Assembly: GCF_000025685.1 (NCBI RefSeq)
Contig: NC_013967.1
Coordinates: forward strand, 1,590,001-1,622,000
Direction of reading: 5' to 3'
Source: Haloferax volcanii DS2
GTDB lineage: Archaea > Halobacteriota > Halobacteria > Halobacteriales > Haloferacaceae
Length of the DNA stretch: 32,000 nt
The notes under the pieces are model-generated. The model worked only from the letters and a program-made list of their open reading frames with translations. It was not told where the DNA came from and ran no database searches. Shown here in pieces: positions 12,958-28,628 of the stretch (positions within the stretch are counted from its first letter, which is position 1; each line of letters starts with the position of its first letter). The position numbers and the translations under genes were made by a program.

Positions 12958-13032
12958 ATTCATACGCACTGAGACCCGAGAACGGGTCCAGGCGCAAACT
13001 GGATTGCACGGACACATTGGTAAGACGGCCCG

Positions 13033-13073: not shown

Positions 13074-13074
13074 A

Positions 13075-13382: not shown

Positions 13383-13459
13383 GCCAAGGTGGCAGAGTTC
13401 GGCCCAACGCATCCGCCTGCAGAGCGGAACCCCCGCCGGTTCAAATCCGGCCCTTGGCT
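13383..13459 (+). tRNA. tRNA-Cys (anticodon GCA), distal gene of the rRNA operon
   Basis: GCCAAGG...TCCGC CTGCAGA GCGGA...GCCGG TTCAAAT CCGGC CCTTGGC T. The 16S-Ala-23S-5S-Cys order is the classic haloarchaeal arrangement. The D-arm pairing is imperfect by eye. Confidence 0.85.
13449..13459 (+). repeat. Putative attL: last 11 nt of tRNA-Cys (GGCCCTTGGCT)
   Basis: The exact 11-mer recurs at 28737-28747. Confidence 0.55.
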
Positions 13460-13636
13460 CTCACACGTTTCTCTAAAGCCCAAGACGACTACGTCTTGGC
13501 TCGTTTCCTCGCTGATCTCAACTTCTCGGAGTTCAGACAGTGGGATCACGCTGGCGACCAACTCGTTTTGAAACAGAGTTCTTGGAATATTCCGCATACA
13601 CAAAGATTTATTCCGCTAGACGACCGTATTTCAGGT

Positions 13637-14212
13637 ATGGACGACCCGCGTACCGAACTCAAAGCAGATACCGACGAGCGTCGGGACCCGCCGGAGTTCG
13701 ACGATCTCGTCCCTCCCGAAGAACTAGTCGCTGGGGATCGCACTCGGGACGACTTCTTCGATGCCGTGCTCGGACTGGGCAGTCCCGCGACTGTGGGTGA
13801 GATCGCAGATCTCGCGGGACATGGGGTAGACGCTGCCCGTGAATATTTAGAGTGGTTCGAACGCATGGGTATCGTCACGCAGATCACCGATTCTCCTGCG
13901 ACGTACGAACGGAATCAGGAGTACCTGAATTGGCGGCGTGTCCAGCAGCTCCGGAACCAGTACGACGACGAGGAACTCCTCGCCTTCCTTGAAGACGCAG
14001 TGGAGCGTGATGAGTCGTTTGCGGAGAAGTTCGGTGTCGAATCTCCGGATGCGGTAGCGATCGCTGCGCACGCAACTGACACGGATCGTTCTGTCGAGAC
14101 AGTGTGGCGGGAGGTGTCAGCGTGGAAGACGACGCGCCGCCGAATCTCCCTCCTCGAACGGGCATTGCAGACTGACACGGACGGCACTGCCGGGCAGCGC
14201 ACTGTCGCATGA
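13637..14212 (+). CDS. winged-HTH DNA-binding protein (191 aa from the ATG at 13637); antitoxin-like partner
   Basis: SPATVGEIADLAGHGVDAAREYLEWFERMGIV is a TrmB/ArsR-like wHTH. The stop overlaps the next start (ATGA at 14209-14212). The track ORF's extension back to 13454 would overlap tRNA-Cys. Confidence 0.65.
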   Translation: MDDPRTELKADTDERRDPPEFDDLVPPEELVAGDRTRDDFFDAVLGLGSPATVGEIADLAGHGVDAAREYLEWFERMGIVTQITDSPATYERNQEYLNWRRVQQLRNQYDDEELLAFLEDAVERDESFAEKFGVESPDAVAIAAHATDTDRSVETVWREVSAWKTTRRRISLLERALQTDTDGTAGQRTVA

Positions 14213-14640
14213 GCGGCGGAAGGGACGGTGTCAGCGGTGCGCCGATCGACTTCGCCCGTCTGAACGTCGTCGCGGAGCGATTTGCTACCGACGATCGCTC
14301 CACTGAGATCGACATCCAACCAGAATTCGCACCCGATCGCATCGTCTGTCACTACGATTCCGGGTTCTATCCCCAGCGCGTGCAGAGTGCTCGCCTTGAG
14401 ATCGCGTGGCTCGAGAACGGGGACTTCTCGATACACTACCACGAAGAGCACCATGAGGGCGAGTTCGACCATCGATGGGATCGGCATCCCTCAGATCACA
14501 ACACGCGTGACCACGTTCACCCGGGTCCGGACGCACCGACACCCGGCGACGACGCGTCACATCCGGCGGAGTGGCGTGACGTGCTGTCGATGGTTCTCGG
14601 CGAGGTCGAAGCTCGACAACGAGCCTTCTGGACGGAGTGA
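14209..14640 (+). CDS. His-rich small protein, possibly TumE/DUF6516-like toxin (143 aa)
   Basis: The motif IHYHEEHHEGEFDHRWDRHPSDHNTRDHVHPGPD recalls the DUF6516 'hYH...RaDn.pH....PHH.H' pattern. That recall is low-certainty. It is translationally coupled to the wHTH gene. Confidence 0.6.
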   Translation: MSGGRDGVSGAPIDFARLNVVAERFATDDRSTEIDIQPEFAPDRIVCHYDSGFYPQRVQSARLEIAWLENGDFSIHYHEEHHEGEFDHRWDRHPSDHNTRDHVHPGPDAPTPGDDASHPAEWRDVLSMVLGEVEARQRAFWTE

Positions 14641-14647: not shown

Positions 14648-15157
14648 TCAGATTTTCTCACGTCGTCGTCGCAGACTGTGACGGATCAGCAGGAGAAAGG
14701 TGCACAGTTCGGCCCGTCGCCGAGATTCGACAAAACGAAACACAACGTTGTAATGTCGAGTCCACGTTGAGAGGGTGCCGACCATCTGGTTCGGATGGAT
14801 GTCCCGCCACGCCATACAGCCCCGGTTCTGAAGGAGGGTTTCCCAGGATGTCTCCACGACGACCGCAAGGGGTTGTGGCCACTCGGTGGCCCGACGTAAC
14901 TCGGAACAGAATCGATCTCGCTCCCACGTGAGTGCGGTGAGGAAGTCGTCTCCGGACTTGCGTTCGACTGCGAACCGTGGGTGATAGGTGTCCGATTCCG
15001 GATCGTGCGTACAAGCAGTCGGGACAGCGTAGTCCCCGGTCGAGAGCGTCACGTCGCGCGTCTCTACTGCACACCTCTCGAACGTCCAGGTTCGCTGTTC
15101 GCGGGTATCTCGCAGTATCGTTGAGGGAATAGAACTACCGTGTCGTGTCTCGCCCAT
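14648..15157 (-). CDS. ERCC4 (XPF/Mus81-type) nuclease-domain-only protein (169 aa)
   Basis: The ERCC4 signature GDx(n)ERKx3D is present: VTLSTGDYAV...FAVERKSGDDFLTAL. No HhH or helicase region is attached. Confidence 0.75.
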   Translation of the reverse strand: MGETRHGSSIPSTILRDTREQRTWTFERCAVETRDVTLSTGDYAVPTACTHDPESDTYHPRFAVERKSGDDFLTALTWERDRFCSELRRATEWPQPLAVVVETSWETLLQNRGCMAWRDIHPNQMVGTLSTWTRHYNVVFRFVESRRRAELCTFLLLIRHSLRRRREKI

Positions 15158-15224
15158 CTATTGCGTTTGGTGCCGGTATCGGAAATAAACCCTCGCAGCG
15201 AGAGAACAAGGGGGATAACGGAGA

Positions 15225-17207
15225 TCAGAATCCGGCCTTCTCCAGTTCGTCGAGAAACGCCGGTCGGTTCGAGTGTTTGTCTTTCAGGAAATCGACGAAC
15301 TCTTCCAACCGCGCTTCGGGGACCAACCCCTGCATCTCTTCTAAGTGGTCGGCGATATCTCGGTAGTGTCGTCGACCGGTGTCGCCGGCGGCAAACGGGA
15401 CGAGCAGTTCCCGGTAGAGTTCGAAGTATTCGACCGGCGCCGTGGTTGCGACCGGGTCACGGTACTGGCGAACCGACGAGAGGTCTGCGTTCTCTTTCAG
15501 TTCGGCAAACGCTCTTTCGAGGTCGTCGTCGTGGACGTACAGCGCGACGAGGTCCTTTCGATCGTCCCGTTCGAAGTGCCGTTCGAATTCCCCGTAGATC
15601 GATTGCCACTCCTGATCGTCACAGATTGTCTTCAGGTCGTCGTACGCTGCCCACTCCGTGTGGTCAAGAAATAACTGCTTCAGGGTGGCACGGTACTCGT
15701 CCATATCTCGGTCCTCGTAGAGGTCGGCAGCGAGCCAACGGAGCTCACGAGCCGATCGGAACGTATGGATCCCGTCTTCGACGACTTCGATCGCACGGTT
15801 TTCGTTGCCTTCGTCGATCAGTCGTCGGGCGTACTCCTTGCAGAATCGCTTGCTCTCGAGGTAGATTTCCTCGTAGAGTTGCGAGAGGGCGTCTTCGTCG
15901 CCGAGTTCCTCGAGAATGTAGACGTAGGTCGAGAATATCCGCCGCTTCTGGAGTGACGACGATATGTCCGTGTCGGTCGTTCCTGATTTGGTCAGTTCGA
16001 CACGTGCAGTGTGTTTCTCGACGGTCGTCGGTTCATCGACGCGTAACTCCTCGAACGCGTCACCGACGAAGTACTCGAATTGCAGTGTCCCAACAGCCAA
16101 GTGTTCGACGTCGAGCGCTCCACCGGTGAAATCGTCGGTGCTGAGCGGACCATCGGTGAAATCGGATGCGTAGAGAACGTCGTCCGTCCGTTCGGGATGG
16201 TCTGTGGAACCGTCATCTCTCGCTGATCCGTCGGATGTATCGGCGCTGTCTTCAGTTTCATCTCGTCGGTCGTCCGTTTTCGAGGACAACTCACCCGACA
16301 GTACTGCGTCGAGTGTGACTCCGGACACGTGTGCGTCGAGTTGCTCCAGCCAGTATTCGAGGTCCGCGTCCTCCGTGCAGACCGTTCGGAGTGCGCCGTC
16401 GTAGTCGTCGCTGGCGAAGCCGTGGTCTGCCCCGACGAACTCCGCACAGAGATACTGGATGTACAGCTCCTTTCGCTCGTGCTCGAACTCCTGTTCTGCG
16501 ACCGTCTCTGCATATGCCTCGATAGCGCGTTCCAGTTCACGGCCGTAGTGCCCGCTGCTGTCGTCGACTCGGTCCAGATTCTCGCGTATCCCCTCGGAAA
16601 CCGCTCGATAGATATCCGTCGCCGTATCGACGTGGCCCCGTTCTCGATGTGTCTCCGCGAGGTCGGTGTACTGCGAGAAGTCGATGTGTGTGCCGTGTTC
16701 GACCATCCCTCGACGACTGACAGCGTCGTCGAACAGTCGATCGATCTCCTGCTTGTAGTCGTAGACTGTCTTGCCCGTGTCTTCGCCGACGAACGCGACG
16801 AACCGGTCACGGATATCCTGATCCGCCGCAACGATGTCGAGCAGAAACGCTCGGAGGTCCTCGGCTGTCGTCTGATCGACCAGCGATTCGATGTCGACCG
16901 TTTCATTTCGTTCGGGGTCAGTGTCACTCATCGTCTCGGGGTCTCGATCATCGACAGCGAGCAGGACCGCGACGACGTGTTTGCAGTCGCCCGCGTAGTC
17001 GTACGGACAACTGCAACGAGACCGGACCCCATCGTCTACGATATCGATAGCCACGTCGTAGTAGTTGGATCCCCGAACGGTGGCTCTGATTTCGCTGCCG
17101 TCGATATCCAGTTCTTGTATCCGATCTTGGTGATAATAGTTGGCACCACGCTCGAACGACTGTTCCGTACAGAGTGACCGTATTTCGTCGCGAGCCGGGT
17201 AGTCCAT
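15225..17207 (-). CDS. SWIM zinc-finger protein, long form, with an acidic linker and a helical-repeat C-terminal half (660 aa)
   Basis: SWIM CxCx(n)CxH is present: RSRCSCPYDYAGDCKHVVAVLL. The N-terminal ~260 aa are paralogous to the ORF at 23635-24432. The C-terminal half is alpha-helical and repeat-like, in the style of COG4715. Confidence 0.8.
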   Translation of the reverse strand: MDYPARDEIRSLCTEQSFERGANYYHQDRIQELDIDGSEIRATVRGSNYYDVAIDIVDDGVRSRCSCPYDYAGDCKHVVAVLLAVDDRDPETMSDTDPERNETVDIESLVDQTTAEDLRAFLLDIVAADQDIRDRFVAFVGEDTGKTVYDYKQEIDRLFDDAVSRRGMVEHGTHIDFSQYTDLAETHRERGHVDTATDIYRAVSEGIRENLDRVDDSSGHYGRELERAIEAYAETVAEQEFEHERKELYIQYLCAEFVGADHGFASDDYDGALRTVCTEDADLEYWLEQLDAHVSGVTLDAVLSGELSSKTDDRRDETEDSADTSDGSARDDGSTDHPERTDDVLYASDFTDGPLSTDDFTGGALDVEHLAVGTLQFEYFVGDAFEELRVDEPTTVEKHTARVELTKSGTTDTDISSSLQKRRIFSTYVYILEELGDEDALSQLYEEIYLESKRFCKEYARRLIDEGNENRAIEVVEDGIHTFRSARELRWLAADLYEDRDMDEYRATLKQLFLDHTEWAAYDDLKTICDDQEWQSIYGEFERHFERDDRKDLVALYVHDDDLERAFAELKENADLSSVRQYRDPVATTAPVEYFELYRELLVPFAAGDTGRRHYRDIADHLEEMQGLVPEARLEEFVDFLKDKHSNRPAFLDELEKAGF

Positions 17208-17340
17208 GTTTTGTGTGTGTGCCTACTGTGGTACCGACTGAAAACGTGACGCTGTGCCGTCACTGGGTGCTTGGTCGTTATGTCTCTCGGCCAGCGCCCG
17301 ACAGATTGAATCGTCCGACGGTCGTGCGTTCACGTACCGA

Positions 17341-18753
17341 ATGCGGATCGAGTTCGACGAGGGGACGCTCTTGCTCCACGATGCGCCCGAGACAGTTCCA
17401 CACGCAGAGTGGGACGACCGCGTCGATACTCACCGGGCACAGGCCTATCGATACCGGGCACTCCTCAAGTGGGCCGGACAGTGGAGCGATGGCGGTGGCC
17501 AGGCCACCCTCGACAGCGGATTCAGTCACGCTGTCGAAGACGCTGCCAGAGCGTACCCGGACCTCGCTCTGACACCCGCACTCCAGATCGAACCGCGTGA
17601 CTATCAGCAGACTGCACTCGGCTCGTGGGGTGCGCACGACCGACAGGGCACAGTAGTCCTTCCGACCGGCAGCGGGAAGACGTTCCTCGGATTGCAGGCT
17701 ATCGCCGACGCCGGTGTCAGCGCACTCGTCGTCACCCCGACGATCGATCTGATGAACCAGTGGCACGCCACGCTCACTCACGCGTTCGGTGAGCAACTCA
17801 CCGACGAGGTCGGCGTCCTCGGTGGCGGGTGTCACGATATCGGCGCGCCCACAGTCACTACCTACGACAGCGCCTACCGCTATATCGACGAGTACGGCGA
17901 TCGGTTCGGCCTGCTCATCACCGACGAAACCCACCATTTGGCGGCCGAGACGTACCTCCAAATTCCCGAGATGACGCTCGCGCCTTACCGCCTCGGATTG
18001 ACAGCGACCTACGAACGCGCTGACGGGCGAGAGACGCTACTCGAAGACCGTATGGGACCGGTTGTCTACGAGGAAGATGTCGACGCCCTCGCCGGAGATT
18101 TCCTCAGTGAGTACGAGACCATCCAGATGTCCGTCGATCTCACACCAGCGGAACGGACTGAATACGACGAGGAGTACCAGATCTACCGGGACTACGTCGA
18201 TAGTCACGACTTCGACCTCTGGAAAGAACAGGGCTACGCGGAGTTTCTCAAGCGGACGTCCTACGATCCACAGGGGCGACGTGCGCTCGTCGCAAAGCAA
18301 CGGGCCGAGCGCATCGCCCGGACGGCGTCGAAGAAACTCGATACGCTCGACAATCTGCTCAAACGTCACCACGACGATCGCGTCATCGTCTTCACCGCCA
18401 ACAACGACTTCGCCTACGACATCTCCCGGGAGTTCATTCTCCCGTGTATCACGCACCAGACCGACACCGACGAACGCACCGAGATTCTCGACCGGTTCCG
18501 CAGCGGTGAGTACTCCATGCTCGCCACCTCGCAGGTCCTCGACGAGGGCATCGACGTGCCAGCGGCCAACGTCGGCATCATCCTCTCCGGGAGCGCATCG
18601 AAACGACAGTACGCCCAACGACTCGGCCGGATCCTCCGTCCGACAGACGACCGCCAGCCAGCACGGCTCTACGAGATCATCACGACCGACACGATGGAGA
18701 CGTACGTCTCGCAGCGACGACGCGAGGGGGTGAGTAGCAGTGCTGACAGCTGA
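17341..18753 (+). CDS. xpb: archaeal XPB helicase, short canonical form (470 aa from the ATG at 17341)
   Basis: The N-terminus MRIEFDEGTLLL is DRD-like. Also seen: Walker A PTGSGKT, motif II LITDETHH, LTATYERADGRE at the RED-motif position, and motif VI-like QRLGRILR. The gene overlaps the downstream Bax1-like gene. Confidence 0.85.
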   Translation: MRIEFDEGTLLLHDAPETVPHAEWDDRVDTHRAQAYRYRALLKWAGQWSDGGGQATLDSGFSHAVEDAARAYPDLALTPALQIEPRDYQQTALGSWGAHDRQGTVVLPTGSGKTFLGLQAIADAGVSALVVTPTIDLMNQWHATLTHAFGEQLTDEVGVLGGGCHDIGAPTVTTYDSAYRYIDEYGDRFGLLITDETHHLAAETYLQIPEMTLAPYRLGLTATYERADGRETLLEDRMGPVVYEEDVDALAGDFLSEYETIQMSVDLTPAERTEYDEEYQIYRDYVDSHDFDLWKEQGYAEFLKRTSYDPQGRRALVAKQRAERIARTASKKLDTLDNLLKRHHDDRVIVFTANNDFAYDISREFILPCITHQTDTDERTEILDRFRSGEYSMLATSQVLDEGIDVPAANVGIILSGSASKRQYAQRLGRILRPTDDRQPARLYEIITTDTMETYVSQRRREGVSSSADS

Positions 18754-20092
18754 TCTCGCACGGTCGCGAACACGCGACGGCGCAGTCCGTCCTCTGTTCA
18801 TCGACATCTCCGACGAGCAGTACCGAGAGACGGCGGCCACGCTGATAGCGCTGTTCGAGGACCATCTCGGTGAACCGAAGGGAGAACTGGACGACGCCAT
18901 CGACGAACTGACCGTGGCCGATACCGACTACAAGATCGTCCAGGGGCTGGCGAAACTCCTCAGAGACGAGTGCGAGTTCGAGCAACAGGCGGCCGTTGAC
19001 CCACGCGAGATCCGCAAGCGACTGTTCGAGCGAGCCAACGATCGCTACCCGATCGTTCGCCAGCCCACACTCGGCGAAGACACGCAGAAACTGGAAGTCT
19101 ACAGCGCGGTCGCCGACGAGTTGGGCATCTCACTCGAGGAGTGTTACCGGGGTATGTACGCTGATCTGGAGGACAACAAACGGCTCGTCCGGTTCGGCGA
19201 CCAGTCGGTGCGCGATGACAGCGACGGACAGGAGTCCACGACGACAACGACGAAACTGACGGGAAATAGCAAGCAGGCGTACGATCAGCGCGACCAGACG
19301 GTCGACTGGCTGCTGGCTCGCTACAACCTCGCGCTGGCACAGGCCGTGCTCTACGACGCCTCGAAGATGCACTTTCGGGTGTGGGAGCACTTCGGAACGG
19401 TGTTCAGTTACATGAAGCTGTTCGGATTGATGCACCGGATCTACCCCATCGACGAGGACGGCAACCGCGTCGCAAGCACGGACGTGGCAGCGGGCTACGA
19501 GGCGGAACTCGACGGGCCAGTCTCGCTGTTTCGGCAATCACAAAAGTACGGCATCCGGATGGCGAACTTCCTGCCCGCGCTCCCGCTGTGTGACCGCTGG
19601 GAGATGCGCGCGGAGATTCTCGACGAGGGGTCGGCCGGCGACACCAAACAGTTCACACTCGACTACACTGATGGGCTCGTCTCCCACTACAGCACCGGCC
19701 AGCGGTTCGACAGCGACGTCGAGCGAACGCTCGCCCGAAAGTGGGAGCGGTCGACCACAGAGTGGGACCTCCAGCGCGAAGACGATGTGTTCGATCTCGG
19801 CTCCGAAGTGATGATCCCCGATTTCGCCATCGAACATCCCGACGGACGGCGGGCAATCATGGAGATCGTCGGGTTCTGGACGCCGGAGTACCTGGCGTCG
19901 AAACTGGCGAAGATACGGCAGGTCGAGACCCACAACTTCGTGTTGGCGGTCTCGGAACGACTGGACTGTTCCGACGAGGACTTCGGGGACGTTGCGGATC
20001 GCGTACTGTGGTTCAAAACCGGGATGCACGTCTACGACGTGGTCGAACTGGCCGAGGAGTACGCCTCTCCGGTCGAAACAGACCCCGACTGA
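18740..20092 (+). CDS. bax1: Bax1 (DUF790) nuclease, partner of XPB (450 aa, GTG start)
   Basis: The N-terminus LTADLARSRTRDGAVRPLF is typical of DUF790. The C-terminal PD-(D/E)xK-like core is MIPDFAIEH...MEIVGFWTPEYL. There is a 14-nt overlap with xpb. Confidence 0.75.
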   Translation: MLTADLARSRTRDGAVRPLFIDISDEQYRETAATLIALFEDHLGEPKGELDDAIDELTVADTDYKIVQGLAKLLRDECEFEQQAAVDPREIRKRLFERANDRYPIVRQPTLGEDTQKLEVYSAVADELGISLEECYRGMYADLEDNKRLVRFGDQSVRDDSDGQESTTTTTKLTGNSKQAYDQRDQTVDWLLARYNLALAQAVLYDASKMHFRVWEHFGTVFSYMKLFGLMHRIYPIDEDGNRVASTDVAAGYEAELDGPVSLFRQSQKYGIRMANFLPALPLCDRWEMRAEILDEGSAGDTKQFTLDYTDGLVSHYSTGQRFDSDVERTLARKWERSTTEWDLQREDDVFDLGSEVMIPDFAIEHPDGRRAIMEIVGFWTPEYLASKLAKIRQVETHNFVLAVSERLDCSDEDFGDVADRVLWFKTGMHVYDVVELAEEYASPVETDPD

Positions 20093-20099
20093 TCGGCAC

Positions 20100-20468
20100 T
20101 CAGCCCAAGCGGCCGCCGTCGCCGTTCCAGTAGTGCCAGTCATCGACTGCCTCCCGGGTATCCTGATCTACGTCGAGCACTTCGAGTTGTGACAACGGGA
20201 CACCGAATTCCCTGTCCTTCCACTCCACGAGGACGAACATCTCACGACTGCTGACGACTTCGTCCGTCATTCCGACGACAGGCACTTCTTCGCCCTCACG
20301 CAGCGGCGAGATCGTTCGCTCCTCGATACACCGCGCCTGAAACGGGAACGTCATCTCGCGTTCGAGGTGATAGCACCAGCTGATCGCTTGCTCGTCGGCG
20401 GTGTACGCGTCGGTGAGTATCTCCCTCCGAATGCGTTTGTCCCGCTCTTCGTCTGTCTCCCGTGTCAT
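20100..20468 (-). CDS. small acidic hypothetical protein (122 aa), last gene of the minus-strand cluster
   Basis: ATGA start/stop overlap with the upstream gene at 20465-20468. The C-terminal motif is VPLSQLEVLDVDQDTREAVDDWHYW. No family is assigned with confidence. Confidence 0.6.
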   Translation of the reverse strand: MTRETDEERDKRIRREILTDAYTADEQAISWCYHLEREMTFPFQARCIEERTISPLREGEEVPVVGMTDEVVSSREMFVLVEWKDREFGVPLSQLEVLDVDQDTREAVDDWHYWNGDGGRLG

Positions 20469-21235
20469 GGTCGTTTCTGCTTGACGATTGCGGCCGTGTC
20501 GGTCGACGTGATCACGTCGCCGTCGAGCACCTCGTCGATTTCGTCTGGTTCGTAGACATCCTTGACGATGCAGTAGTAATGCGAGGGCGTCCCGAAGTCG
20601 TAGACGAGACTGAGTCTGTCACCCTCTCGAAGTCTGGCCCGCTCGGCGACATCCGCAATCGTCATCTCGCCCGCTTTCGTGTACGTCCGGTCGCCTGCTT
20701 CCTCGTACTGGCGGTCAGGAAGCACGTTGAGACTGGAATCCAGATACTCGTCTTCGAGGCCGTACATCCGGAGGTGGAAATCGTCGAGCGTCGAGAACCG
20801 GCACACGAGTCTGTCCAGTTCCGCCATCGTCGTCTCCGGTCTCACGACGATATCGTACCACTCCTCCCGCGCACGCCCTTTCTGCTTCCACCGGAGCCGA
20901 TACCCGACAGTCCCGATCTGCTCGGACAGGTCGTCAGCATCCTGCTCTTTCCCCACTGCTTCACGCGTGTTCGACCAGCAATACGAGCAGATCTCGTCAG
21001 GTGCATCGCCTTCGAAGCCCGCCTTGTTGATGTCGTGGTGGGCGGCAAACTCCGACAACGAGACGTGCTGCGGACGCGGGTGGCGGTTCCCTCGACTACA
21101 CATCATCTCCCCGGGACCTCCAATGCCGAGCGAGAAGCGAGAGTCCGTCTCCGATTGGTCGGCGTCCGTATCGATGATGTGCGCGACGGTTCCGGTTCCG
21201 ATCTCGATCACGAATCGGTCGGTTGGCTCGCTCAT
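20465..21235 (-). CDS. MM3350-like / pRiA4b ORF-3-like (PF07929-type) protein with a Cys-containing N-terminal extension (256 aa)
   Basis: YRLRWKQ...EWYDIVVRPETTMAELDRLVCRFSTLDDFHLRMY and LSLVYDFGTPSHYYCIV match the two hallmark blocks of the family (Y.l.V.L..iWR.i.v....L..LH..I...fgW...HLh.F and Y.YDFGD.W.H.i). Confidence 0.65.
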   Translation of the reverse strand: MSEPTDRFVIEIGTGTVAHIIDTDADQSETDSRFSLGIGGPGEMMCSRGNRHPRPQHVSLSEFAAHHDINKAGFEGDAPDEICSYCWSNTREAVGKEQDADDLSEQIGTVGYRLRWKQKGRAREEWYDIVVRPETTMAELDRLVCRFSTLDDFHLRMYGLEDEYLDSSLNVLPDRQYEEAGDRTYTKAGEMTIADVAERARLREGDRLSLVYDFGTPSHYYCIVKDVYEPDEIDEVLDGDVITSTDTAAIVKQKRP

Positions 21236-21241
21236 CGTTGC

Positions 21242-21874
21242 TCACCGGTACTGGATGTAGATGCCATGGTCGCGATACAGGTCGTGGAACGCGACGAACC
21301 GCTGTCGGGAGGCCGCTTTCGGTTCGTCTGGCTCTACTCGATGCTCGTGTTCTTCGAGAAGGTGGGTTTTCTCCTCGCCGGGGAACGGAAACGAGACGCC
21401 CGAGGTTGTAGTAAACTCGTCGTACCGAACGGGTCTGAAAAACAGCACTGTCCCCGGCTCCGCGGTTCGGCTGAGGTTGATATCCAGCAGCGTGTGTTCT
21501 TCGCGGCCGTCGAGCAGATCGGTTACCGTCAGACGGGGGTCTGAGTCGCTGATGGACTCGACCTCGAACAGCGAGGGGTCGGCGTCGACGGTGGCTTCGA
21601 GAATGTCCCGTTCGGTTTCGCTCTCCCAGCGCTCCGCTTCGAGGTATCGCTCCGCCGCAGTGGTCCCGTCCCGGTGGTATTCGTACAGCGCGAACTCGAA
21701 GTGGGCCGCCATCTGGGATTCGAACTCGTAGGCCAGGTTCAGCCCGTCGAATTCGATGTCCAGCTCGGACGCGGTTTCTACGATCAGTTCCCGGTCAGAG
21801 TACGCCTCGAGGATGTCGCTGTTCAATTGCGTCCCGACTTCCCGATAGGTCTTGTACTGGTCGGTGTCGGTCAC
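21242..21874 (-). CDS. hypothetical acidic protein (210 aa)
   Basis: Clean ORF, co-directional, only 6 nt from the next gene. No motif recognised. Confidence 0.6.
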   Translation of the reverse strand: MTDTDQYKTYREVGTQLNSDILEAYSDRELIVETASELDIEFDGLNLAYEFESQMAAHFEFALYEYHRDGTTAAERYLEAERWESETERDILEATVDADPSLFEVESISDSDPRLTVTDLLDGREEHTLLDINLSRTAEPGTVLFFRPVRYDEFTTTSGVSFPFPGEEKTHLLEEHEHRVEPDEPKAASRQRFVAFHDLYRDHGIYIQYR

Positions 21875-21933
21875 TACGAGAGTGTATCATCTGGGCGGTA
21901 CCAGTATCTTGTGGCGCCGGACGTACAGTGGGA

Positions 21934-22920
21934 TTACAGATCCATATCGGCAAACGTCCATTCCTCTCCCAGTTGTCGGTGGAACCCCTCGGATTCGATC
22001 GTGTTCCGCAACTGCGATCTGACTGTCTCGTCGAACTCGAACCGGTCGTTCAATTCATCGCGCATGTCCCAGTAACGAGGGACCTTCGGAGCGGAATCGC
22101 GGTCGACCTCGGACAGGATCGACGCCAGCAGGTATCGATCCTCGTAGTCGATCCGCTCGTCACTCAGCAACGCATCCATCAAGTCGGCTGCAGCGTGCTG
22201 ATCGGCGTAGAACGCATGCGGGAGCACGCCCCGAACCCAGAATAGTTCCTCGGTAACAGCATCCTGGAGTTGCTCTTCGACCGAGTGCTCGGGATAGCCG
22301 ATTCCCCATCCGTACGTGAACGATTCTTCCCAACTCGTGTCTTTATTTGAATCCCAGAACGAACCGAGATACGCCAGCGCCTCGGCGGGGACTGCCCCGA
22401 CGCCGTCGCGCCGTCGCGTCCGGACGACGTGGCGTCCGACTGCGTTCTCGATGACCGGGCTCACGAAGGGTTCGTCGTCGCTCTCACGCGAATATGCGTC
22501 GATAAGATCTGTGAGAAACGGCCATCCTTCACGCGTAGCGATTTCGTCGAGCGCCTCTGCTGCCGGTTCGTAAAACGCCCAGAATATCCCGCGATACGTG
22601 TCGTCGTTCTCGGTTTGGTGGTATTCCTGAAGTTCTCGTTCGTAGTGAGCGAGCATCTGGAATGCGGCGTCAGCGTCCCCTTTCGCAGCCGCTTCGAGAT
22701 TGGTTTTCAACGTTCCACTCGCGGCTTCCAGCCCTCGTTTCTCGCGCTCTTGATTCCGCCGCTCCATGTCGGCGTCGAGAGCGTCCGAGATCGAATCGAG
22801 GAAACTGTCGAACGACGACAGCGGGTTCGACTCCGCTGGCTCTTCAGCAGGACAGTCGTGTAGACGCAGGCGACTCAACGTAGTGAAACTCTCACCGCAG
22901 GCATCGCACTCGTGTGGCAT
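21934..22920 (-). CDS. hypothetical protein with an N-terminal C2H2/C2HC-type zinc finger (328 aa)
   Basis: N-terminus MPHECDACGESFTTLSRLRLHDC (Cx2Cx12HxC). The rest is acidic and helical with no recognised domain. Confidence 0.65.
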   Translation of the reverse strand: MPHECDACGESFTTLSRLRLHDCPAEEPAESNPLSSFDSFLDSISDALDADMERRNQEREKRGLEAASGTLKTNLEAAAKGDADAAFQMLAHYERELQEYHQTENDDTYRGIFWAFYEPAAEALDEIATREGWPFLTDLIDAYSRESDDEPFVSPVIENAVGRHVVRTRRRDGVGAVPAEALAYLGSFWDSNKDTSWEESFTYGWGIGYPEHSVEEQLQDAVTEELFWVRGVLPHAFYADQHAAADLMDALLSDERIDYEDRYLLASILSEVDRDSAPKVPRYWDMRDELNDRFEFDETVRSQLRNTIESEGFHRQLGEEWTFADMDL

Positions 22921-22995
22921 CGTTCGTATTCGTCTGGACGAGGGGGAGACACATCTACGTTCGGGGCTGTTCTGGCTGTCTCGAACGCGCAGATA

Positions 22996-23553
22996 TTACT
23001 CGTCGAGATCAGGGTATTGAGACGGTGCTGTGCCTTGCTCGTCGACGACGACGGGATCACCATCCATCGATCCCGTTCGCGTGTCTTGCAGTTCGATGTA
23101 GTGTTCCCAGCTGTCGCCCATGTCGAACGTGTAGGAGAGCGCGCCCAGATCTTCCGGATCGAGTTCGTCGATCGTCGTCTCAGCGGCGTTGCCTTCCATC
23201 GGTGGGTTCGACTGGAGTTCGCGGAACCGTTCTTTGGCTTCCTCGGACGCGTCGTCCGGCACGGCCTGCTCGATGAAGCGATCGATCTCTTCGTCGTCCA
23301 TTGTGCGCCAGCTCGGACCGCCATCGTAGAGCATCGGATGGACGTAGCTCCGGAGCGCGATGCCGTTGTCATCGCGTGTGATGAACTCGTAGGCGTGGCT
23401 CTCCCAGCGATCGAACGCCTGGAAGATCGCCTCGTGGAACGTAGCGAGCGTGTGTGACCCGTCGATCTCGAGGTCGTGCCAGACCTCCTCGTCGGGTTCG
23501 AACCCCAGCGGTGGATGCGGCTGGAGCCAGACGCGGAACACGTAGGTCGTCAT
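22996..23553 (-). CDS. MM3350-like / pRiA4b ORF-3-like protein (185 aa)
   Basis: YVFRVWL...EVWHDLEIDGSHTLATFHEAIFQAFDRWESHAYEF and LSYTFDMGDSWEHYIEL are close to the family consensus. Confidence 0.75.
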   Translation of the reverse strand: MTTYVFRVWLQPHPPLGFEPDEEVWHDLEIDGSHTLATFHEAIFQAFDRWESHAYEFITRDDNGIALRSYVHPMLYDGGPSWRTMDDEEIDRFIEQAVPDDASEEAKERFRELQSNPPMEGNAAETTIDELDPEDLGALSYTFDMGDSWEHYIELQDTRTGSMDGDPVVVDEQGTAPSQYPDLDE

Positions 23554-23634
23554 GCCTCGTCTAACGAGGGTCAGTGTTGTAGATTTTTCGCGTAGACAAT
23601 AGATATCCGCTGATGAATCGATTCGCTGACTTCC

Positions 23635-24432
23635 TCACTCGTATCGCTCCTCCAGATCGTCGAGTGCGCGCCGGAACTGCTCGTCGTTGATCCGCGGCTC
23701 TGCCGTTGCCCGCGCCTCAAGCACGCCAGCGTACGTGTCGAACTCTTCGGGAGTCGGATTGGTCGCGAGGACGCAGTCGGCGTAGCCGTCGAGTGCGGTC
23801 TGGATCGCCTTCGCGTAGTGGTCGTAGGCACCGTCGATCCAGTTGTATTTCTCGTCGATCTCCTCGAACACCGCTCGGTAGACGGTCGCAGCGGCCAGAT
23901 ACCGCTCGCGGTCACGGTACTGCTCGGCGATCTCCAAAAACCGGGAGAAGTCGATGGCCTCGAACACGACCGGGTCGGCGTGTTGCTCGAACAACTGCGC
24001 GATTTCCTCGCGGTACTCCTCGACCGATCTGTGGTCGTCGCCAAAGCGTGCGAGAAACTGCTCGCGCAACTCCGGATGTTCGGCGAGGGCGTCACGGGCG
24101 AACCCACGCAGGTCCTCGGCCGACACGTCGTCGATGACTGCCTCGACACGCTCGCTCTCGTCCTGTGGCGGGCTGGCGGCGATGTCCAGCAGTACTGCGA
24201 CGACGTGCTTGCAGTCGCCGCCACCGTCGTACGGACAGGTACACCGCGCATCGATACTGCGCCCGCCGAACTCGACAGTCACGTCGTACAACTTCGAACC
24301 GCTGATGGTGGCCGTAACGAGTTCGCCAAATCGGTCGAGTTGCTGAATGCGTCCCTCGTCACGGTAGTTGACTCCGCGTTCGAACACCGCATCGGTGCTT
24401 CTGTTCTTGACCCTTTCCCTATCGATGTTCAT
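23635..24432 (-). CDS. SWIM zinc-finger protein, short form (265 aa from the ATG at 24432)
   Basis: ARCTCPYDGGGDCKHVVAVLL is a SWIM motif. The protein is collinear with the N-terminal part of the 660-aa SWIM protein. It lies 32 nt downstream of the helicase gene. Confidence 0.8.
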   Translation of the reverse strand: MNIDRERVKNRSTDAVFERGVNYRDEGRIQQLDRFGELVTATISGSKLYDVTVEFGGRSIDARCTCPYDGGGDCKHVVAVLLDIAASPPQDESERVEAVIDDVSAEDLRGFARDALAEHPELREQFLARFGDDHRSVEEYREEIAQLFEQHADPVVFEAIDFSRFLEIAEQYRDRERYLAAATVYRAVFEEIDEKYNWIDGAYDHYAKAIQTALDGYADCVLATNPTPEEFDTYAGVLEARATAEPRINDEQFRRALDDLEERYE

Positions 24433-24464
24433 GACTCGTCTTTCGACGCAGACGTAAAATTCGA

Positions 24465-26873
24465 TTACGGTGTCGAATCGGCGGCCTGCCGGCTCGGATC
24501 GGCCAGCGCCATCGTGAGCGTCGCCGCGAGGCGTTTGTCGAGCGGTTCGTTCGCTCGGCCACAGTGCGGTGATTGAATACACGCCGGACAGCCGTCGGAA
24601 CAGCCACAATCGGCGAGCAGTTCCCACGTGTGCTGGAAGAGTCCCTCGATGTGGTCGTATCCGTTGCGGGCGAGTCCGACACCACCGCGGTAACTGTCGT
24701 ACATGAATAGCGCGCTCGTCTCGGTCTGTGGGTGTTCGGCCGTCGAGACGCTTCCAACGTCACGCCGGTCACAAAGGATGACCAGCGGGAATGTGGCGAC
24801 GAGGGCGTGCTGGACGGCGTGGAGGCCACCCTCGAACGACCCGGACATCGTCTGCATCAGGCTTTCCAGTCCCGGTGGGAGCGTCACGTACAGTGCACGG
24901 GTCGAGAGCGTCGTTTCGGGCAGCTTGAGTGCCTCCTCGGTCATGATCTCACCAGTTCGGTGGTCGCGTCGCTGGAAGCCGGTGACCTGCTTCCGTCGCG
25001 TCACGTCCGCGAAGTGAACGGTCACGTCGTCGCGGGTCGCCAGTGGCTTGGTAGCGCTGTCCTCCTCGATAGTCATCGACTCCTCGTACTGCACGCGCGT
25101 CTGGTGGTCGCTGTCCGTTTCGGCGAGCCACGCCACGTCGCGGTCTAGGTCGAGTGACTGGACTTCGTAGTTCTGCCCCTGATGGTGGTAGATCGCACCT
25201 GGATGTACGTCCCGCAGTGCCGCGTTGAGCGGCAACTTCCCGAGTTCGTCAGTCGCTCCCCCTCGAACCCGGAGGGTGACCATGCGTTCTGTGATGGTTC
25301 GGAGCCCCTGTTCGTACGGATTCACCGTTCGTCCGCTGGCGGTGCGTCGCCATTCGAGTCCTTGATCTGTCTGTCGCCGGGTCAATTCGCCGTCGTTTGT
25401 GAGGGTACTGACGATGTCGGGGAAAGTAGAACCGAAATACGCCTCGTCGGCGGTTCGGAGCGGTCCTTCCATGGCCGCGGCGTGTGTATGCAGTTTCAGG
25501 AGATGCGAATTCGAGGGATTGGCGACGGCACGCTCGGGCGTCTGCTCGAACAGTTCGTTAGGATGCTTGATAACGTACTGGTCGAGTTGATCCTCGCTGG
25601 CGACGAGCGCGACGAGGCTCGGGTCGGTCCCACGGCCAGCGCGGCCCGCGCGCTGGAACGTTGCCATCTGTGTTCCAGGGTACCCGTCTAACAGGACGGC
25701 GTCGAGGCTGCCGATGTCGACGCCGAGTTCCAGCGCGCTCGTGCTCCAGACGCCGGCACAGTCCCCGGAGTGCAGTGCAGTCTCGATTGTCGCCCGCCGG
25801 TCATCGCGCAGTCCTGCGTGGTACGCAGTTACGCTCTGGGCGATGTCGGCCCTCCCGCGCTCTGCGAGTGTATCGCTGCTGATGGTGGCGTACCGCTCTG
25901 CCGTCTGCCTCGCGCGCGTGAACGCCACTGTCTGATACCCCTGCATCACGAGGTCGACGAACAGTCGCATGGTTTCCCCGTGGTTGGAGCGGCGCTGTCC
26001 ACCACCGGCCGGTGCATCGCCCTCGTCGTATTCCGGTGGTTGCCAGAACAGCCAGTGTGTCGGACCCGTTTCACTGGTGTCCTCGTCGACGAGTTCGAAC
26101 GAGTCGGTCGGTTGGCCGGCGATCGTCGCTGCGTGCTCCCGGGGATTGCCGATCGTCGCGGAACAGCACACGAACTGCGGGTCGGCACCGAGACGGTCAC
26201 AGATCCGCGCCAGCCGGCGGCAGACGAGACCGACGTGACTGCCGAAGACACCGCGGTACTCGTGGACTTCGTCGACGACGACGAGTTCCAACGACTCGAA
26301 GAACGCTCGCCAGAGGTCGCCCGCGTGACTGAGCAGTCCACAGTGGAGCATATCCGGCGTCGTCAAGACGATGGACGGGTCTTCGTCACGTGCCTGCTGG
26401 CGCTCGTCCGAAGAGAGCGAGCCTGTGTACTGAGTCACGGAGAGATCGTCGAACGGTGCAGCGAAATCAGACAGCGTCGTCTCCTGGTCGTTGATCAGCG
26501 CGACCTGCGGACCGATATACAGCGTCCGTCCGTCGTACTTGTGAGCGCGCTCGATGGCGGGAATCGTGTACGCGAGGCTCTTTCCGCTTGCTGTCGGCGT
26601 CGCGAGGACGACGTTCTGCCCGTTGCGAACCGCTTCGATGGCGTCGGTCTGGTGTGCGTAGAGTCCGTCGATGCCCCGGTTAGCAAGGAGGTCTGCGAGC
26701 CGGCGCTCCATCTCACAGGATCGAGTGATGGGCCTACGAGCGGGAATCTCCCGCTGGAACTGGATCTGATCGCGGTAGTACTCGCGGTTCTGTACCCACT
26801 CGACGAACTCGTTCACTACTCCGTGGATACTGCGTGCCCGCATATAGGGATATGGCCCTCGACTTGTCGCCAT
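24465..26873 (-). CDS. COG1205-type DEAD/DEAH (DEVH) SF2 helicase with a C-terminal DUF1998/MZB Cys cluster (MrfA/Hrq1-like, 802 aa)
   Basis: Motifs seen: Walker A ATPTASGKS, motif II VVVDEVHEY, CSATIGNP and motif VI QRAGRAGRG. The C-terminus is DCGCSDGCPACIQSPHCGRANEPLDK. Confidence 0.85.
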   Translation of the reverse strand: MATSRGPYPYMRARSIHGVVNEFVEWVQNREYYRDQIQFQREIPARRPITRSCEMERRLADLLANRGIDGLYAHQTDAIEAVRNGQNVVLATPTASGKSLAYTIPAIERAHKYDGRTLYIGPQVALINDQETTLSDFAAPFDDLSVTQYTGSLSSDERQQARDEDPSIVLTTPDMLHCGLLSHAGDLWRAFFESLELVVVDEVHEYRGVFGSHVGLVCRRLARICDRLGADPQFVCCSATIGNPREHAATIAGQPTDSFELVDEDTSETGPTHWLFWQPPEYDEGDAPAGGGQRRSNHGETMRLFVDLVMQGYQTVAFTRARQTAERYATISSDTLAERGRADIAQSVTAYHAGLRDDRRATIETALHSGDCAGVWSTSALELGVDIGSLDAVLLDGYPGTQMATFQRAGRAGRGTDPSLVALVASEDQLDQYVIKHPNELFEQTPERAVANPSNSHLLKLHTHAAAMEGPLRTADEAYFGSTFPDIVSTLTNDGELTRRQTDQGLEWRRTASGRTVNPYEQGLRTITERMVTLRVRGGATDELGKLPLNAALRDVHPGAIYHHQGQNYEVQSLDLDRDVAWLAETDSDHQTRVQYEESMTIEEDSATKPLATRDDVTVHFADVTRRKQVTGFQRRDHRTGEIMTEEALKLPETTLSTRALYVTLPPGLESLMQTMSGSFEGGLHAVQHALVATFPLVILCDRRDVGSVSTAEHPQTETSALFMYDSYRGGVGLARNGYDHIEGLFQHTWELLADCGCSDGCPACIQSPHCGRANEPLDKRLAATLTMALADPSRQAADSTP

Positions 26874-26924
26874 CGGCGAACGAGGTTCTTATCTAGGTGC
26901 TCGGACAACAATCTCGTGAGCGCA

Positions 26925-27608
26925 ATGGTTGCTCCGATTTCGCACGCGGACGAACTTGACCCGTTTATCGCTCTGGAACTTCCCCCGGGCTGGGTTCGTG
27001 GCCTTCTCGAACCGCTGTCGGGGTCGTTCCGATCGGACGACCCGCTTGAGAGCGCGCTGTTCGAGGCACTCACGGGATCGAAGCCTGACTCGGCACCAAC
27101 CTCGAACACAGTCATCTTCACGTATCTCGCCGGCTACGATCCCGGTATCGACCGGCCGATTGACAGCGAGCGCCAGCTATCGATCAAGTACGTAGCCGAG
27201 CAGGATGCGTTCGGAGTCAGAGCAGCGTTCGACGAAGGTCTGGTCGAGACTGTTCCAGACGCTCGTGACTGGCTGGAACGGGCCATGCCACGGGTCGAAC
27301 GTGAGATGGACCATCGACGCCGCTTCTGGGTGGCGCTCTCGGATATCCACGGTCTCGGGCAGCAAGGGATTGACAATCTGAACGGGGAATACGAGTCTTT
27401 GGATGCAGTCGCTTCGGCGACCGAAACCGAACTGGCCGACATTCCGTACGTCACTGACGACTTGGCGCCCGAGGTAGTGGAAGCTGCCGAGCAGTTCGAC
27501 GGGACAGTCCCGGATGCTCCTGGCGACCGGGCGGCCGACTGTGCTGACGATCCGCTCGTCGTCGATACTAGCGACCTGCGTCCATTCAGTGACCTCTTCG
27601 AGAACTGA
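26925..27608 (+). CDS. helix-hairpin-helix (HhH)2-containing protein (227 aa)
   Basis: LSDIHGLGQQGIDNL and LADIPYVTDDLAPEVV form two HhH-like motifs. This is only the last 227 codons of the 612-aa track ORF; the upstream part is antisense to the helicase gene. Confidence 0.6.
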   Translation: MVAPISHADELDPFIALELPPGWVRGLLEPLSGSFRSDDPLESALFEALTGSKPDSAPTSNTVIFTYLAGYDPGIDRPIDSERQLSIKYVAEQDAFGVRAAFDEGLVETVPDARDWLERAMPRVEREMDHRRRFWVALSDIHGLGQQGIDNLNGEYESLDAVASATETELADIPYVTDDLAPEVVEAAEQFDGTVPDAPGDRAADCADDPLVVDTSDLRPFSDLFEN

Positions 27609-27656
27609 ACGCCGACGGTCCTGAACCTTTTCAATCAAGCAGTCGTACCCGTTTCT

Positions 27657-28628
27657 ATGCCGTTTAGCGTCAGCTGGCACACGCTGCTCGAGGAGCTCGA
27701 CGAGTTGCCCGACGATGCTGAACTCGTCACACCGCTCTCGCACGATACGTTCCGCGTCACGGACGTACAGGAACACCGCGTTGTCGTCACGTTCGACGAC
27801 ACGGGAGAGCGTCGCCCGCTCCAGCGCGATCAGTTCGAGACCCTTCACCGCCGGATCCAGGACTCGAACGGTGCGTTCGAACTCGACCGGCTCCCACCCG
27901 ATGCCGATCCCTATCCGGCAGTGCTGAGCCTGCATCCGCGATTCGAGGTGGACGAAGAGCAGGGTAGTATCGCCGAAACGGAAGCAGAGACTGGTACCCA
28001 ACTCCTGAGTGGCGAATCAGCACCTGCCGAGAGCGACCGTGTCGAACCTGACGAGATCGACGTGTATTCGGATGCCCTTCTCCTCATCGATGCGCTGGAA
28101 CGTCAGGACGTCTCCGATCTCACAGCACTGGAGACGGAAGCACTGGTGAACCTCTACACGCTCTGTTCGGATGTCCAGCGGAACGCGGACGAACTCCGCC
28201 AGGACATCGCCGACGTGTTACTCGATCGACTCCACCACGATCAGCCAGTCCACGGGCAGTACGGCTCGGTTCAGCGAACGTCGCGTCGTAACCGCTCGTT
28301 GAAAGACGAGGAAGACGTACTGGCCACACTGGAAGGCGCAGGGATCGACCGCGAGCGTGTCATGAGCGTCGACTCGAAGAAAGTGAACGAGGCACTGGAA
28401 GTAACGGAACTCTCGGAAACGGATGTCTACGAGGTTGACGAGAGCGAATACGTCCGGAAGGCCGAAGTAGACGAGGATGTCAAAGAGTCACGACTCCAGG
28501 GATTGAAAGACCGGCTTGCGGCCAGTAGCGACGCAGAATCCGACGAACTCAGACAGGAGATCGAGGCCCTCGAAGAACGTATCGACGACCTTACGAGTTT
28601 CAGTACGGGGACACAGATGCAGGGGTAG
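27657..28628 (+). CDS. hypothetical acidic protein with a coiled-coil-like C-terminus (323 aa)
   Basis: Clean ORF with strongly acidic composition. The C-terminus SDELRQEIEALEERIDDL is heptad-like. No tyrosine- or serine-recombinase motifs. Confidence 0.6.
   Translation: MPFSVSWHTLLEELDELPDDAELVTPLSHDTFRVTDVQEHRVVVTFDDTGERRPLQRDQFETLHRRIQDSNGAFELDRLPPDADPYPAVLSLHPRFEVDEEQGSIAETEAETGTQLLSGESAPAESDRVEPDEIDVYSDALLLIDALERQDVSDLTALETEALVNLYTLCSDVQRNADELRQDIADVLLDRLHHDQPVHGQYGSVQRTSRRNRSLKDEEDVLATLEGAGIDRERVMSVDSKKVNEALEVTELSETDVYEVDESEYVRKAEVDEDVKESRLQGLKDRLAASSDAESDELRQEIEALEERIDDLTSFSTGTQMQG

Follow-up and report, generated by a model that had tools for sequence, protein, structure and literature searches.

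The 32,000-nucleotide (nt) stretch of Haloferax volcanii DS2 DNA analysed here, referred to below as the window, belongs to the main chromosome, which carries in this stretch a 14-kb block of 13 genes (G1 to G13; window positions 14648-28628) that encode helicases, nucleases, SWIM zinc-finger proteins and a set of small accessory proteins. A first-pass annotation, made from the DNA letters alone, had read the block as an island built of two SWIM-protein/helicase modules plus nucleases, and had proposed it as a candidate system of DNA defence or repair. All 13 of the open reading frames (ORFs) that it listed are present where it placed them, and each has conserved homologues elsewhere. The genes are given below by window position, together with a pair (Ga and Gb) that adjoins the block; numbers in parentheses after family names are E values.

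13637..14212, plus strand: Ga, DUF7342 winged helix-turn-helix (wHTH) protein of 191 amino acids (aa), putative TumA-like antitoxin (Pfam DUF7342, 4e-30); an optional end gene
14209..14640, plus strand: Gb, putative toxin of the TumE (DUF6516) family (precomputed PF20126 TumE match); 4-nt overlap with Ga
14648-15157, minus strand: G1, ERCC4-only nuclease of 169 aa, without (HhH)2 (Pfam ERCC4, 8.6e-13); conserved end gene of the block
15225-17207, minus strand: G2, SWIM-long, 660 aa, with a SWIM domain (2.3e-6), an acidic linker and a helical C-terminus; operonic with G1
17341-18753, plus strand: G3, XPB/Rad25 helicase of 470 aa (XPB_DRD, 1.7e-14; ResIII; ERCC3_RAD25_C)
18740-20092, plus strand: G4, Bax1 (DUF790) nuclease (DUF790, 2.2e-132, profile positions 1-386 of 387); 14-nt overlap with the XPB gene
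20100-20468, minus strand: G5, small acidic protein of the CcbP family (Calci_bind_CcbP PF11535, 4e-34; PDB 2k2v, 1.6e-17)
20465-21235, minus strand: G6, Cys-containing N-terminus and MM3350-like C-terminal domain (PRiA4_ORF3, 2.9e-4, below the family cutoff)
21242-21874, minus strand: G7, DUF7986, a variable component found in a subset of loci (no local Pfam match; DUF7986 in newer Pfam)
21934-22920, minus strand: G8, DUF8137, N-terminal C2HC finger (CxxC...HxC) and helical domain; variable position
22996-23553, minus strand: G9, MM3350-like (PRiA4_ORF3, Pfam 1.8e-15), a variable component
23635-24432, minus strand: G10, SWIM-short, 265 aa, with a SWIM domain (1e-7) and a helical repeat domain
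24465-26873, minus strand: G11, DExH helicase of the MrfA/YprA type (DEAD, Helicase_C and the MZB (DUF1998) zinc domain)
26925-27608, plus strand: G12, possible (HhH)2 protein (HHH_5 and HHH_2 both sub-threshold, 2e-4 and 5e-4), a rare insertion between G13 and G11
27657-28628, plus strand: G13, DUF7983, conserved end gene, divergent from the MrfA operon

Nearly all of the domain calls made at first pass were reproduced with Pfam. The exceptions are G5, which had been left as unknown and is a member of the CcbP family, and the helix-hairpin-helix (HhH) call, which stays below threshold. The two SWIM proteins are paralogous, as had been claimed, over their first ~235 residues (37% identity over 234 aa, E 1e-45). 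Two proteins had been called MM3350-like; G9 is a clear member, whereas the match of G6 is weak and finds its support in tblastn searches, in which G6 is ~30% identical to annotated pRiA4b ORF-3 proteins. The TumE family signature PF20126 is recorded for Gb and two of its orthologues (in the loci designated L036 and L117), but it did not reappear in our local Pfam scan.

In H. volcanii the catalytic motifs (Walker, DExH and ERCC4) are all intact, as are the SWIM and MZB motifs. The XPB protein carries helicase motifs I, II, III and VI as GSGKT, DETH, TAT and QRLGR, and from the gene order it is probably rad25b (HVO_1736). G11 aligns with Bacillus subtilis MrfA/YprA (6znp) over the full length (residues 45-768, 3.6e-121; MZB, 2.6e-20) and retains the motifs DEVH, SAT, QRAGRAGR and CGCSDGCPAC; it scores 651 bits on TIGR03817, under the cutoff of 874. 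In G1 the catalytic motif GDXnERKX3D reads GDx23ERKSGDD (GDY...ERKSGDD, residues 41-71). G1 consists of the ERCC4 domain only, and the C-terminal (HhH)2 of the archaeal short XPF is not present.

Conservation of the gene neighbourhood had been put forward as one check on the island. We anchored loci on SWIM-short, 28 of them from species-representative genomes and 80 from metagenomes, and mapped all of the window proteins onto these loci, which are cited by L numbers where needed. Linkage counts were restricted to loci with a G10 at >=75% identity, and they are not independent counts because some metagenomic loci duplicate genomic ones. The check showed that the genes are not scattered core genes; their linkage is strongly non-random and they form a conserved, mobile block that is transferred horizontally. 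The recurring order, shared by ~100 of the genomic and metagenomic loci, is DUF7983 (divergent), MrfA, SWIM-short, a variable set of MM3350, DUF8137 and DUF7986 genes, G6 and CcbP, followed by a convergent Bax1-XPB pair and then by SWIM-long, in some cases a DUF8137-like gene, and ERCC4, with TumE/DUF7342 genes sometimes at the end. MrfA or its remnant lies directly upstream of G10 in 26 of the 35 loci with enough upstream sequence, and DUF7983 is present in 22 of 30 G10 loci. One of G6, G7, G8 or G9 directly follows G10 in most cases (35/40), and CcbP accompanies G6 in 21 of 26 loci. Where at least 7 kb of downstream sequence could be inspected (23 loci), ERCC4 was found in 18, SWIM-long in 14 and XPB-Bax1 in 12. 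Besides Haloferax, the genera with the block are Halapricum, Halorubrum, Haloarcula, Halorhabdus, Salinibaculum, Natronorubrum, Natronomonas, Halobacterium and Halonotius; G10 itself is >=75% identical across many genera, and DUF7983 has 1959 relatives.

The genes fall into three linked sets: (i) DUF7983, divergent from MrfA, SWIM-short, MM3350-like and CcbP genes; (ii) XPB-Bax1; and (iii) SWIM-long, in some loci DUF8137, and ERCC4, with the TumA/TumE-like pair as an optional addition. In H. volcanii, G6 is translationally coupled to G5, and it is coupled to G10 where G7 to G9 are missing. In loci that lack the variable genes, such as L003, the SWIM-short stop codon and the start of G6 overlap, as do G6 and CcbP; these overlaps indicate an operon. 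The G2-G1 order, with or without an intervening DUF8137 gene, is likewise conserved across loci, the intervening gene belonging in other genomes to a second DUF8137 subfamily. The variable genes are distributed more narrowly. Genes like G8, at 34-37% identity, are found in L012, L022, L044, L059, L063 and L064; among related loci, G9 occurs only in L007 and L042, and G12 is conserved only in L011 and L043. The Ga gene accompanies the block in L003, L006, L036 and L117. The Halorhabdus and Halapricum blocks contain an additional unannotated gene of ~406 aa between DUF8137 and DUF7986 (L036, 11922-13145; L119, 4611-5831), which is absent from H. volcanii.

The first-pass annotation had divided the block into two modules, each pairing a SWIM gene with a superfamily 2 (SF2) helicase gene. 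This division is correct for MrfA and SWIM-short, which lie on the same strand and are separated by 33 nt, but not for XPB and SWIM-long. SWIM-long is co-directional and operonic with ERCC4, and the two are kept together in loci where XPB-Bax1 is missing (L038, L056, L063, L064 and L119). XPB-Bax1 is a separable cassette. The pair was found on 13 haloarchaeal plasmids, 12 of which have no SWIM gene adjacent to it. On six of the 13 a CcbP-like gene lies directly upstream of XPB, and on three a small MM3350-like gene is convergent to Bax1; moreover, plasmids of Halobaculum and Natronobeatus carry full-length G6-like and DUF7983-like genes (61-63% identity) along with XPB-Bax1. The MM3350-like proteins had been assigned to the module of SWIM and the DUF1998 helicase, an assignment that is too narrow, since MM3350-like, CcbP and DUF7983 genes also accompany XPB-Bax1. 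That the MrfA-SWIM and XPB-Bax1 sets share these three partners across replicons and orders is the strongest argument for a functional system as opposed to mere neighbours.

The plasmid cassettes differ in their surroundings. One XPB-Bax1-CcbP cassette is situated between a TIR/DUF4231 gene pair and a BREX PglX gene with a methyltransferase gene, and others adjoin a restriction endonuclease or AbiEi gene. Stand-alone XPB-Bax1 lies within a few kb of ParA in L123, L124, L126 and L127, and on two plasmids it adjoins a pair encoding a UvrD helicase and a PD-(D/E)XK nuclease. SWIM-short has paralogues (41-45% identity) on many haloarchaeal plasmids, where they form three-gene operons of a wHTH gene, a TumE-like gene and the SWIM gene (L122, pNRC200, 5037-6822; metagenomic loci L102-L116), an arrangement that suggests a separate association between SWIM proteins and toxin-antitoxin genes. 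TumE-TumA is a validated toxin-antitoxin family (PMC10584680). Ga and Gb resemble it in being an HTH gene and a TumE-family gene with a 4-nt overlap, here at the tRNA-proximal end of the block, and similar pairs precede the plasmid SWIM-short paralogues; the Ga-Gb pair is, however, missing from many versions of the block.

The limits of the block and its history of transfer can be read from comparisons between genomes. In Halapricum hydrolyticum (L003), the block proteins share 91-98% identity with their H. volcanii counterparts, whereas the flanking DUF8231 protein shares only 29%, which indicates recent transfer between families. Beyond DUF7983 the neighbours vary from genome to genome (FKBP, DUF5305 with insertion sequence (IS) elements, an RNB nuclease or a copper ATPase), which marks DUF7983 as a true boundary of the unit. 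The other end is ERCC4 or the toxin-antitoxin pair, in agreement with the extent given to the block at first pass. The G+C content, ~0.57-0.63 in the block vs 0.65-0.72 in the flanks, also sets it apart. Other copies lie elsewhere in chromosomes or on megaplasmids, for example Haloarcula sinaiiensis pHsi204. Erosion is common and affects mostly MrfA, which is frameshifted, survives only as the MZB tail or is disrupted by IS605/TnpB elements; in Haloarcula quadrata, G6 is split by an IS element, and Halalkaliarchaeum retains only DUF8137, DUF7983, TumA/E and ERCC4. In collapsed versions (L117, L029 and L054) the DUF7983 and ERCC4 end genes remain together.

The block had also been described as a tRNA-integrated island. 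The features that surround it in the window are as follows.

379-452, minus strand: tRNA-Tyr, at the left end of the window
3448-4700: array of repeats resembling origin recognition boxes (ORB), to the right of tRNA-Tyr
4707-5912: orc1/cdc6 gene
8192-13460: complete rRNA operon, 16S-tRNAAla(TGC)-23S-5S-tRNACys
right of 28628: a few small genes and a copper ATPase gene

The tRNA-Cys gene at the edge of the block is the terminal gene of the 16S-tRNAAla-23S-5S-tRNACys operon. This tRNA-Cys has no direct repeat of >=12 nt in the window, and its 3′ end is not copied at the other end of the block; no att repeat was found, and Pfam scans detected no integrase among the products of the window ORFs scanned. 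The description as a tRNA-integrated island is not supported as it stands. The complete rRNA operon at 8192-13460 accounts both for the apparent gene desert and for the "tRNA" at the edge, and the odd-looking region of low coding density between 8 and 13.4 kb is simply this operon. At least 12 loci, spread over several genera, have the same tRNA-Cys, in some cases with 5S/23S, as the neighbour of the block or of a solitary SWIM-short gene. Directly upstream of orc1/cdc6 there are at least nine copies of the 20-nt ORB-like repeat CACACCACGTTTCCGGTGAA, in both orientations, around a stretch of lower G+C content; judged by its repeats and its Orc1/Cdc6 gene, this region resembles an origin of chromosomal replication; it is ~9 kb away from the block, with the rRNA operon in between.

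Three of the protein families were considered further with respect to what they might contribute. The SWIM family comprises ~3,600 clusters at 50% identity (E <=1e-3), and most full-length members are 540-600 aa long. Among 59 long relatives, Pfam revealed no fusion to a helicase or nuclease domain and only SWIM and TPR-type repeats. The AlphaFold2 (AF2) model of SWIM-short (pLDDT, the model's confidence score, 79) has the SWIM domain followed by helical repeats, and its best match in the PDB is ZSWIM8, a borderline one (E 1.5e-3, probability 0.99). Because of this domain content, the helical repeats of the model and the likeness to ZSWIM8, we take the SWIM proteins to be non-catalytic adaptors, probably composed of a SWIM domain and an alpha-solenoid. 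Bacterial SWIM relatives adjoin RepA or ParAB genes. For DUF7983, the N-terminal ~110 aa are modelled with confidence as a small beta-barrel and the remainder as helical with low confidence; no significant match to the model was found in the PDB (best E 0.03). The name DUF2800 PD-(D/E)XK nuclease, which some NCBI records give to G13 homologues, is not supported, since the match (E 0.017) involves only the C-terminal part of the profile and the AF2 model shows no nuclease core. Bacterial members of the CcbP family, annotated as calcium-binding proteins, are found on plasmids: that on Leptolyngbya pLBX (L131) is beside genes for a 1394-aa protein, a PDDEXK nuclease and a DUF499 protein, and one on a Cupriavidus plasmid (L132) is beside DUF6884 and an integrase gene. 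These settings hint at a role of the CcbP family in the biology of DNA or mobile elements rather than in calcium signalling.

The claim that the block matches no described system was upheld in PADLOC and literature searches. Apart from the SWIM matches described below, PADLOC returned only similarity in the helicase core (to SngC, BrxH, DruE, DpdF/J, DrmA, PsyrT and PbeA), and the partner genes of the named systems are absent; in particular, Pfam and PADLOC detected none of the partners that define DISARM and Druantia (no methylase, PLD nuclease or DruA-D), as the first reading had stated. The helicase core of G11 resembles DruE, DrmA and DpdF/J. The matches to DrmA are weak and partial (1e-10), and the block encodes no PLD protein and no methylase; the DruE matches cover only segments of the helicase core, with no match to DruA-D/DruH. 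The matches to Dpd proteins are confined to parts of DpdE, DpdF and DpdJ, the SWIM region weakly resembling the N-terminus of the helicase DpdE; the 7-deazaguanine genes are not in the block. The XPB match to PbeA is no sign of membership because PbeA combines an HKD nuclease and an SF2 helicase in one fusion protein (PMC10853773), and we rejected this assignment given that only the helicase core matches.

Four further comparisons bear on individual components. G3 and G4 constitute a full-length XPB (DRD and two RecA domains) and Bax1/DUF790, encoded by canonical overlapping genes as in other XPB-Bax1 pairs; the difference is that the pair here resides in a mobile block, with CcbP-like, MM3350-like and DUF7983 partners and a divergent SWIM-long-ERCC4 operon, partners for which our literature search yielded no description. 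G11 aligns with the whole of B. subtilis MrfA, including the four-cysteine MZB domain, but Pfam scans found no exonuclease domain in any block protein, so that the MrfAB pair (YprA/YprB, mitomycin C repair) is not reproduced: the MrfB-type DnaQ exonuclease is missing, and the downstream partners are SWIM-short, MM3350-like and CcbP. Both SWIM proteins match the N-terminus of the 566-position PDC-S62 profile, G2 through its first ~230 aa (1.3e-23; profile positions 11-231) and G10 through its first ~140-200 aa (4.6e-15; positions 8-149), or ~40% of the profile. PDC-S62 is a single-gene, unvalidated PADLOC candidate, unlike the SWIM genes of the block, which are operonic with a helicase or a nuclease gene. 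The bacterial SWIM+TPR proteins, ~550-600 aa long, follow the same domain logic as the block proteins, a SWIM domain with helical repeats, and this is also what the G10 model has in common with the eukaryotic substrate receptor ZSWIM8; with an identity of 17%, a borderline score and no cullin/ubiquitin machinery, the latter serves as an analogy for an adaptor role only. A literature search found no paper combining SWIM with MM3350, none mentioning PDC-S62 and none for the HVO_17xx locus tags that we had guessed. The composition of the block is new and its building blocks are known, and we class it with the helicase-nuclease modules for DNA surveillance.

Two of the proteins have links to viruses. 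The best family match of G1 is the viral-type family phrog_3490 (4.5e-32), which fits better than Pfam ERCC4, and homologues with 45-49% identity were found in 53 tailed haloviruses. In one of these, HSTV-2 (L130, ERCC4 at 7025-7510), the neighbourhood holds no other gene of the block. G13 matches phrog_35116 over its full length (6e-142), whereas tblastn of G13 against the 50,697 phage records of INPHARED gave no match; phrog_35116 probably goes back to a part of a haloarchaeal genome that was predicted to be a prophage. Scans of IMG/VR with G2, G4, G10 and G11 revealed no close relatives.

One hypothesis, which we favour tentatively and at somewhat less than an even chance, sees the block as a modular island of helicases and nucleases that moves horizontally and whose products work jointly on DNA, most likely against invading or selfish replicons, that is, in defence against or conflict with mobile genetic elements. 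According to this hypothesis, the SWIM adaptors, together with the MM3350-like, CcbP-like and DUF7983 proteins, would recognise a DNA structure or nucleoprotein state typical of foreign DNA; free ends, single-stranded gaps and replication or recombination intermediates are candidates. The adaptors would then recruit or license the motors MrfA and XPB, unwinding by these motors would create junctions of single strand and duplex, and the structure-specific nucleases Bax1 and ERCC4 would cut the junctions. Because the block contains no modification enzyme, self and non-self would be distinguished by DNA structure or context and not by methylation. Consistent with a role in such conflicts are the conserved order and content of the block, its intact catalytic motifs, and its horizontal transfer, patchiness and erosion, with IS/TnpB insertions and collapsed versions. 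The copies on megaplasmids and the toxin-antitoxin pair at one end point the same way, as does the recurrence of the accessory genes with stand-alone plasmid XPB-Bax1, including the cassette amid TIR/DUF4231 and BREX genes. The similarity of the SWIM proteins to PDC-S62 and to the DpdE N-terminus, their SWIM+TPR relatives free of enzymatic domains and the ZSWIM8-like AF2 model also speak for it, and the bacterial plasmid genes of the CcbP type beside PDDEXK and DUF499 genes, or beside an integrase, are in keeping with the hypothesis.

Several observations weigh against it. There is no experimental phenotype. For a defence system, the conservation of the proteins is unusually high (75-98%), and no hypervariable sensor is evident; the MrfA, XPB-Bax1 and ERCC4 families are known from the repair of lesions and crosslinks; the context of defence islands is anecdotal, and many of the metagenomic loci are not mutually independent. 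XPB-Bax1 and SWIM-short each also occur alone, and hence a single system is not a required reading. If G3 is rad25b, its deletion is viable and has no reported phenotype, in a study of which challenge with viruses or plasmids was not part (PMC11276520); according to the same source, rad25b is highly expressed and its deletion causes no gene-conversion phenotype. A bolder version of the defence hypothesis, which we regard as unlikely, is that the entire block makes up a single immune system of haloarchaea with many proteins, in which SWIM/alpha-solenoid adaptors and their partners license MrfA, XPB-Bax1 and ERCC4 to open and cleave invading replicons with no DNA modification, and that the mobile archaeal XPB-Bax1 cassettes are primarily conflict modules and not enzymes of nucleotide excision repair. 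Such a role of mobile XPB-Bax1, if true, would explain the lack of a repair phenotype upon deletion.

The main rival is that the block is an accessory, horizontally acquired repair kit for crosslinks, bulky adducts or stalled forks, in which MrfA would unwind DNA at the adduct, XPB-Bax1 and ERCC4 would incise the junctions, and the SWIM proteins would act in recruitment or as mediators in the manner of eukaryotic Shu2/SWS1. In B. subtilis, MrfA has a role in mitomycin C repair, and G11 is a full-length homologue of MrfA/YprA with an intact MZB cluster; XPB-Bax1 and ERCC4 are enzymes of the repair type, and the strong conservation of sequence fits a constraint like that on housekeeping genes. 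The location is suitable as well: the block adjoins an rRNA operon with heavy transcription, an ORB-rich origin is ~9 kb away, and conflicts between replication and transcription are expected at such a place. We nevertheless consider this explanation rather improbable. The block is patchily distributed, moves between genera, decays frequently (especially at MrfA) and is found in plasmid, IS and toxin-antitoxin contexts, and it lacks the MrfB-type exonuclease partner. Furthermore, a quadruple rad25 deletion mutant of H. volcanii grows normally (PMC11276520), and haloarchaea already use UvrABC for nucleotide excision repair (PMC1590041).

Alternatively, the genes might have no joint function, the site beside the rRNA operon being a hot spot of recombination at which independent cassettes accumulate (XPB-Bax1 with CcbP, MrfA with SWIM, SWIM with ERCC4, and TumAE), which are then transferred together as neighbours. 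On most of the plasmids that carry it XPB-Bax1 is alone, SWIM-short paralogues stand alone or with TumAE-like pairs, and the content of the block is variable, with internal deletions being common; the tRNA-Cys/5S flank shared by at least 12 loci in several genera is consistent with homologous recombination anchored on rRNA genes. What neighbourhood by itself does not predict is that DUF7983, G6 and CcbP recur with different sets of enzymes, on different replicons and in different orders. The DUF7983 and ERCC4 end genes, moreover, stay paired in collapsed versions, and the genes are tightly packed with overlapping start and stop codons. We think that this explanation is unlikely. Finally, the block might serve a mobile element (a plasmid, integrated element or satellite) and not the host, as a module of partly viral origin for maintenance, replication or recombination; we find this highly doubtful. 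Outside cells, the ERCC4-only nuclease indeed has its closest relatives in the 53 tailed haloviruses and phrog_3490, G13 matches phrog_35116 along its entire length, plasmid XPB-Bax1 is often beside ParA, and the bacterial SWIM relatives are beside RepA/ParAB. Yet Pfam and PHROG scans found no integrase, Rep, capsid or packaging gene in the block, close relatives of G2, G4, G10 and G11 were not found in IMG/VR, G13 has no match in the INPHARED phages, and no att repeats were found.

The analysis places one XPB-Bax1 copy of H. volcanii in a mobile, eroding block with recurrent partners of uncharacterised function, namely, SWIM adaptors, MM3350-like, CcbP-like and DUF7983 proteins, and thereby assigns a genomic context to these four families. 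UV damage in haloarchaea is repaired by UvrABC. With conflict with mobile elements as the favoured reading, archaeal XPB-Bax1, the cellular role of which has long been enigmatic, gains a genetically testable hypothesis in the best archaeal model organism. The CcbP family, annotated as "calcium-binding", becomes linked to cassettes of DNA enzymes that mobile elements carry in archaea and possibly also in bacteria.

We also considered whether the locus is a known provirus of H. volcanii. Provirus Halfvol2 was rejected, as it lies at tRNA-Ala-CGC, at 329-342 kb of the chromosome, whereas the block lies beside the rRNA operon and beside HTH/TRASH and P-type ATPase genes that match the HVO_1752-type family (TRASH/Cu-ATPase). 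The papers on H. volcanii proviruses that were retrieved in our literature search concern other loci. A different SWIM zinc-finger gene of H. volcanii, HVO_0362, which is outside the window and annotated "provirus", is up 2.4-fold in a strain lacking Cas11b (PMC11899642). At the left end of the window, two partial direct copies of the tRNA-Tyr 3′ end lie beside the gene, one of 21 nt at 277-297 and one of ~15 nt at 165-180, and they resemble the att-site scars of past integrations.

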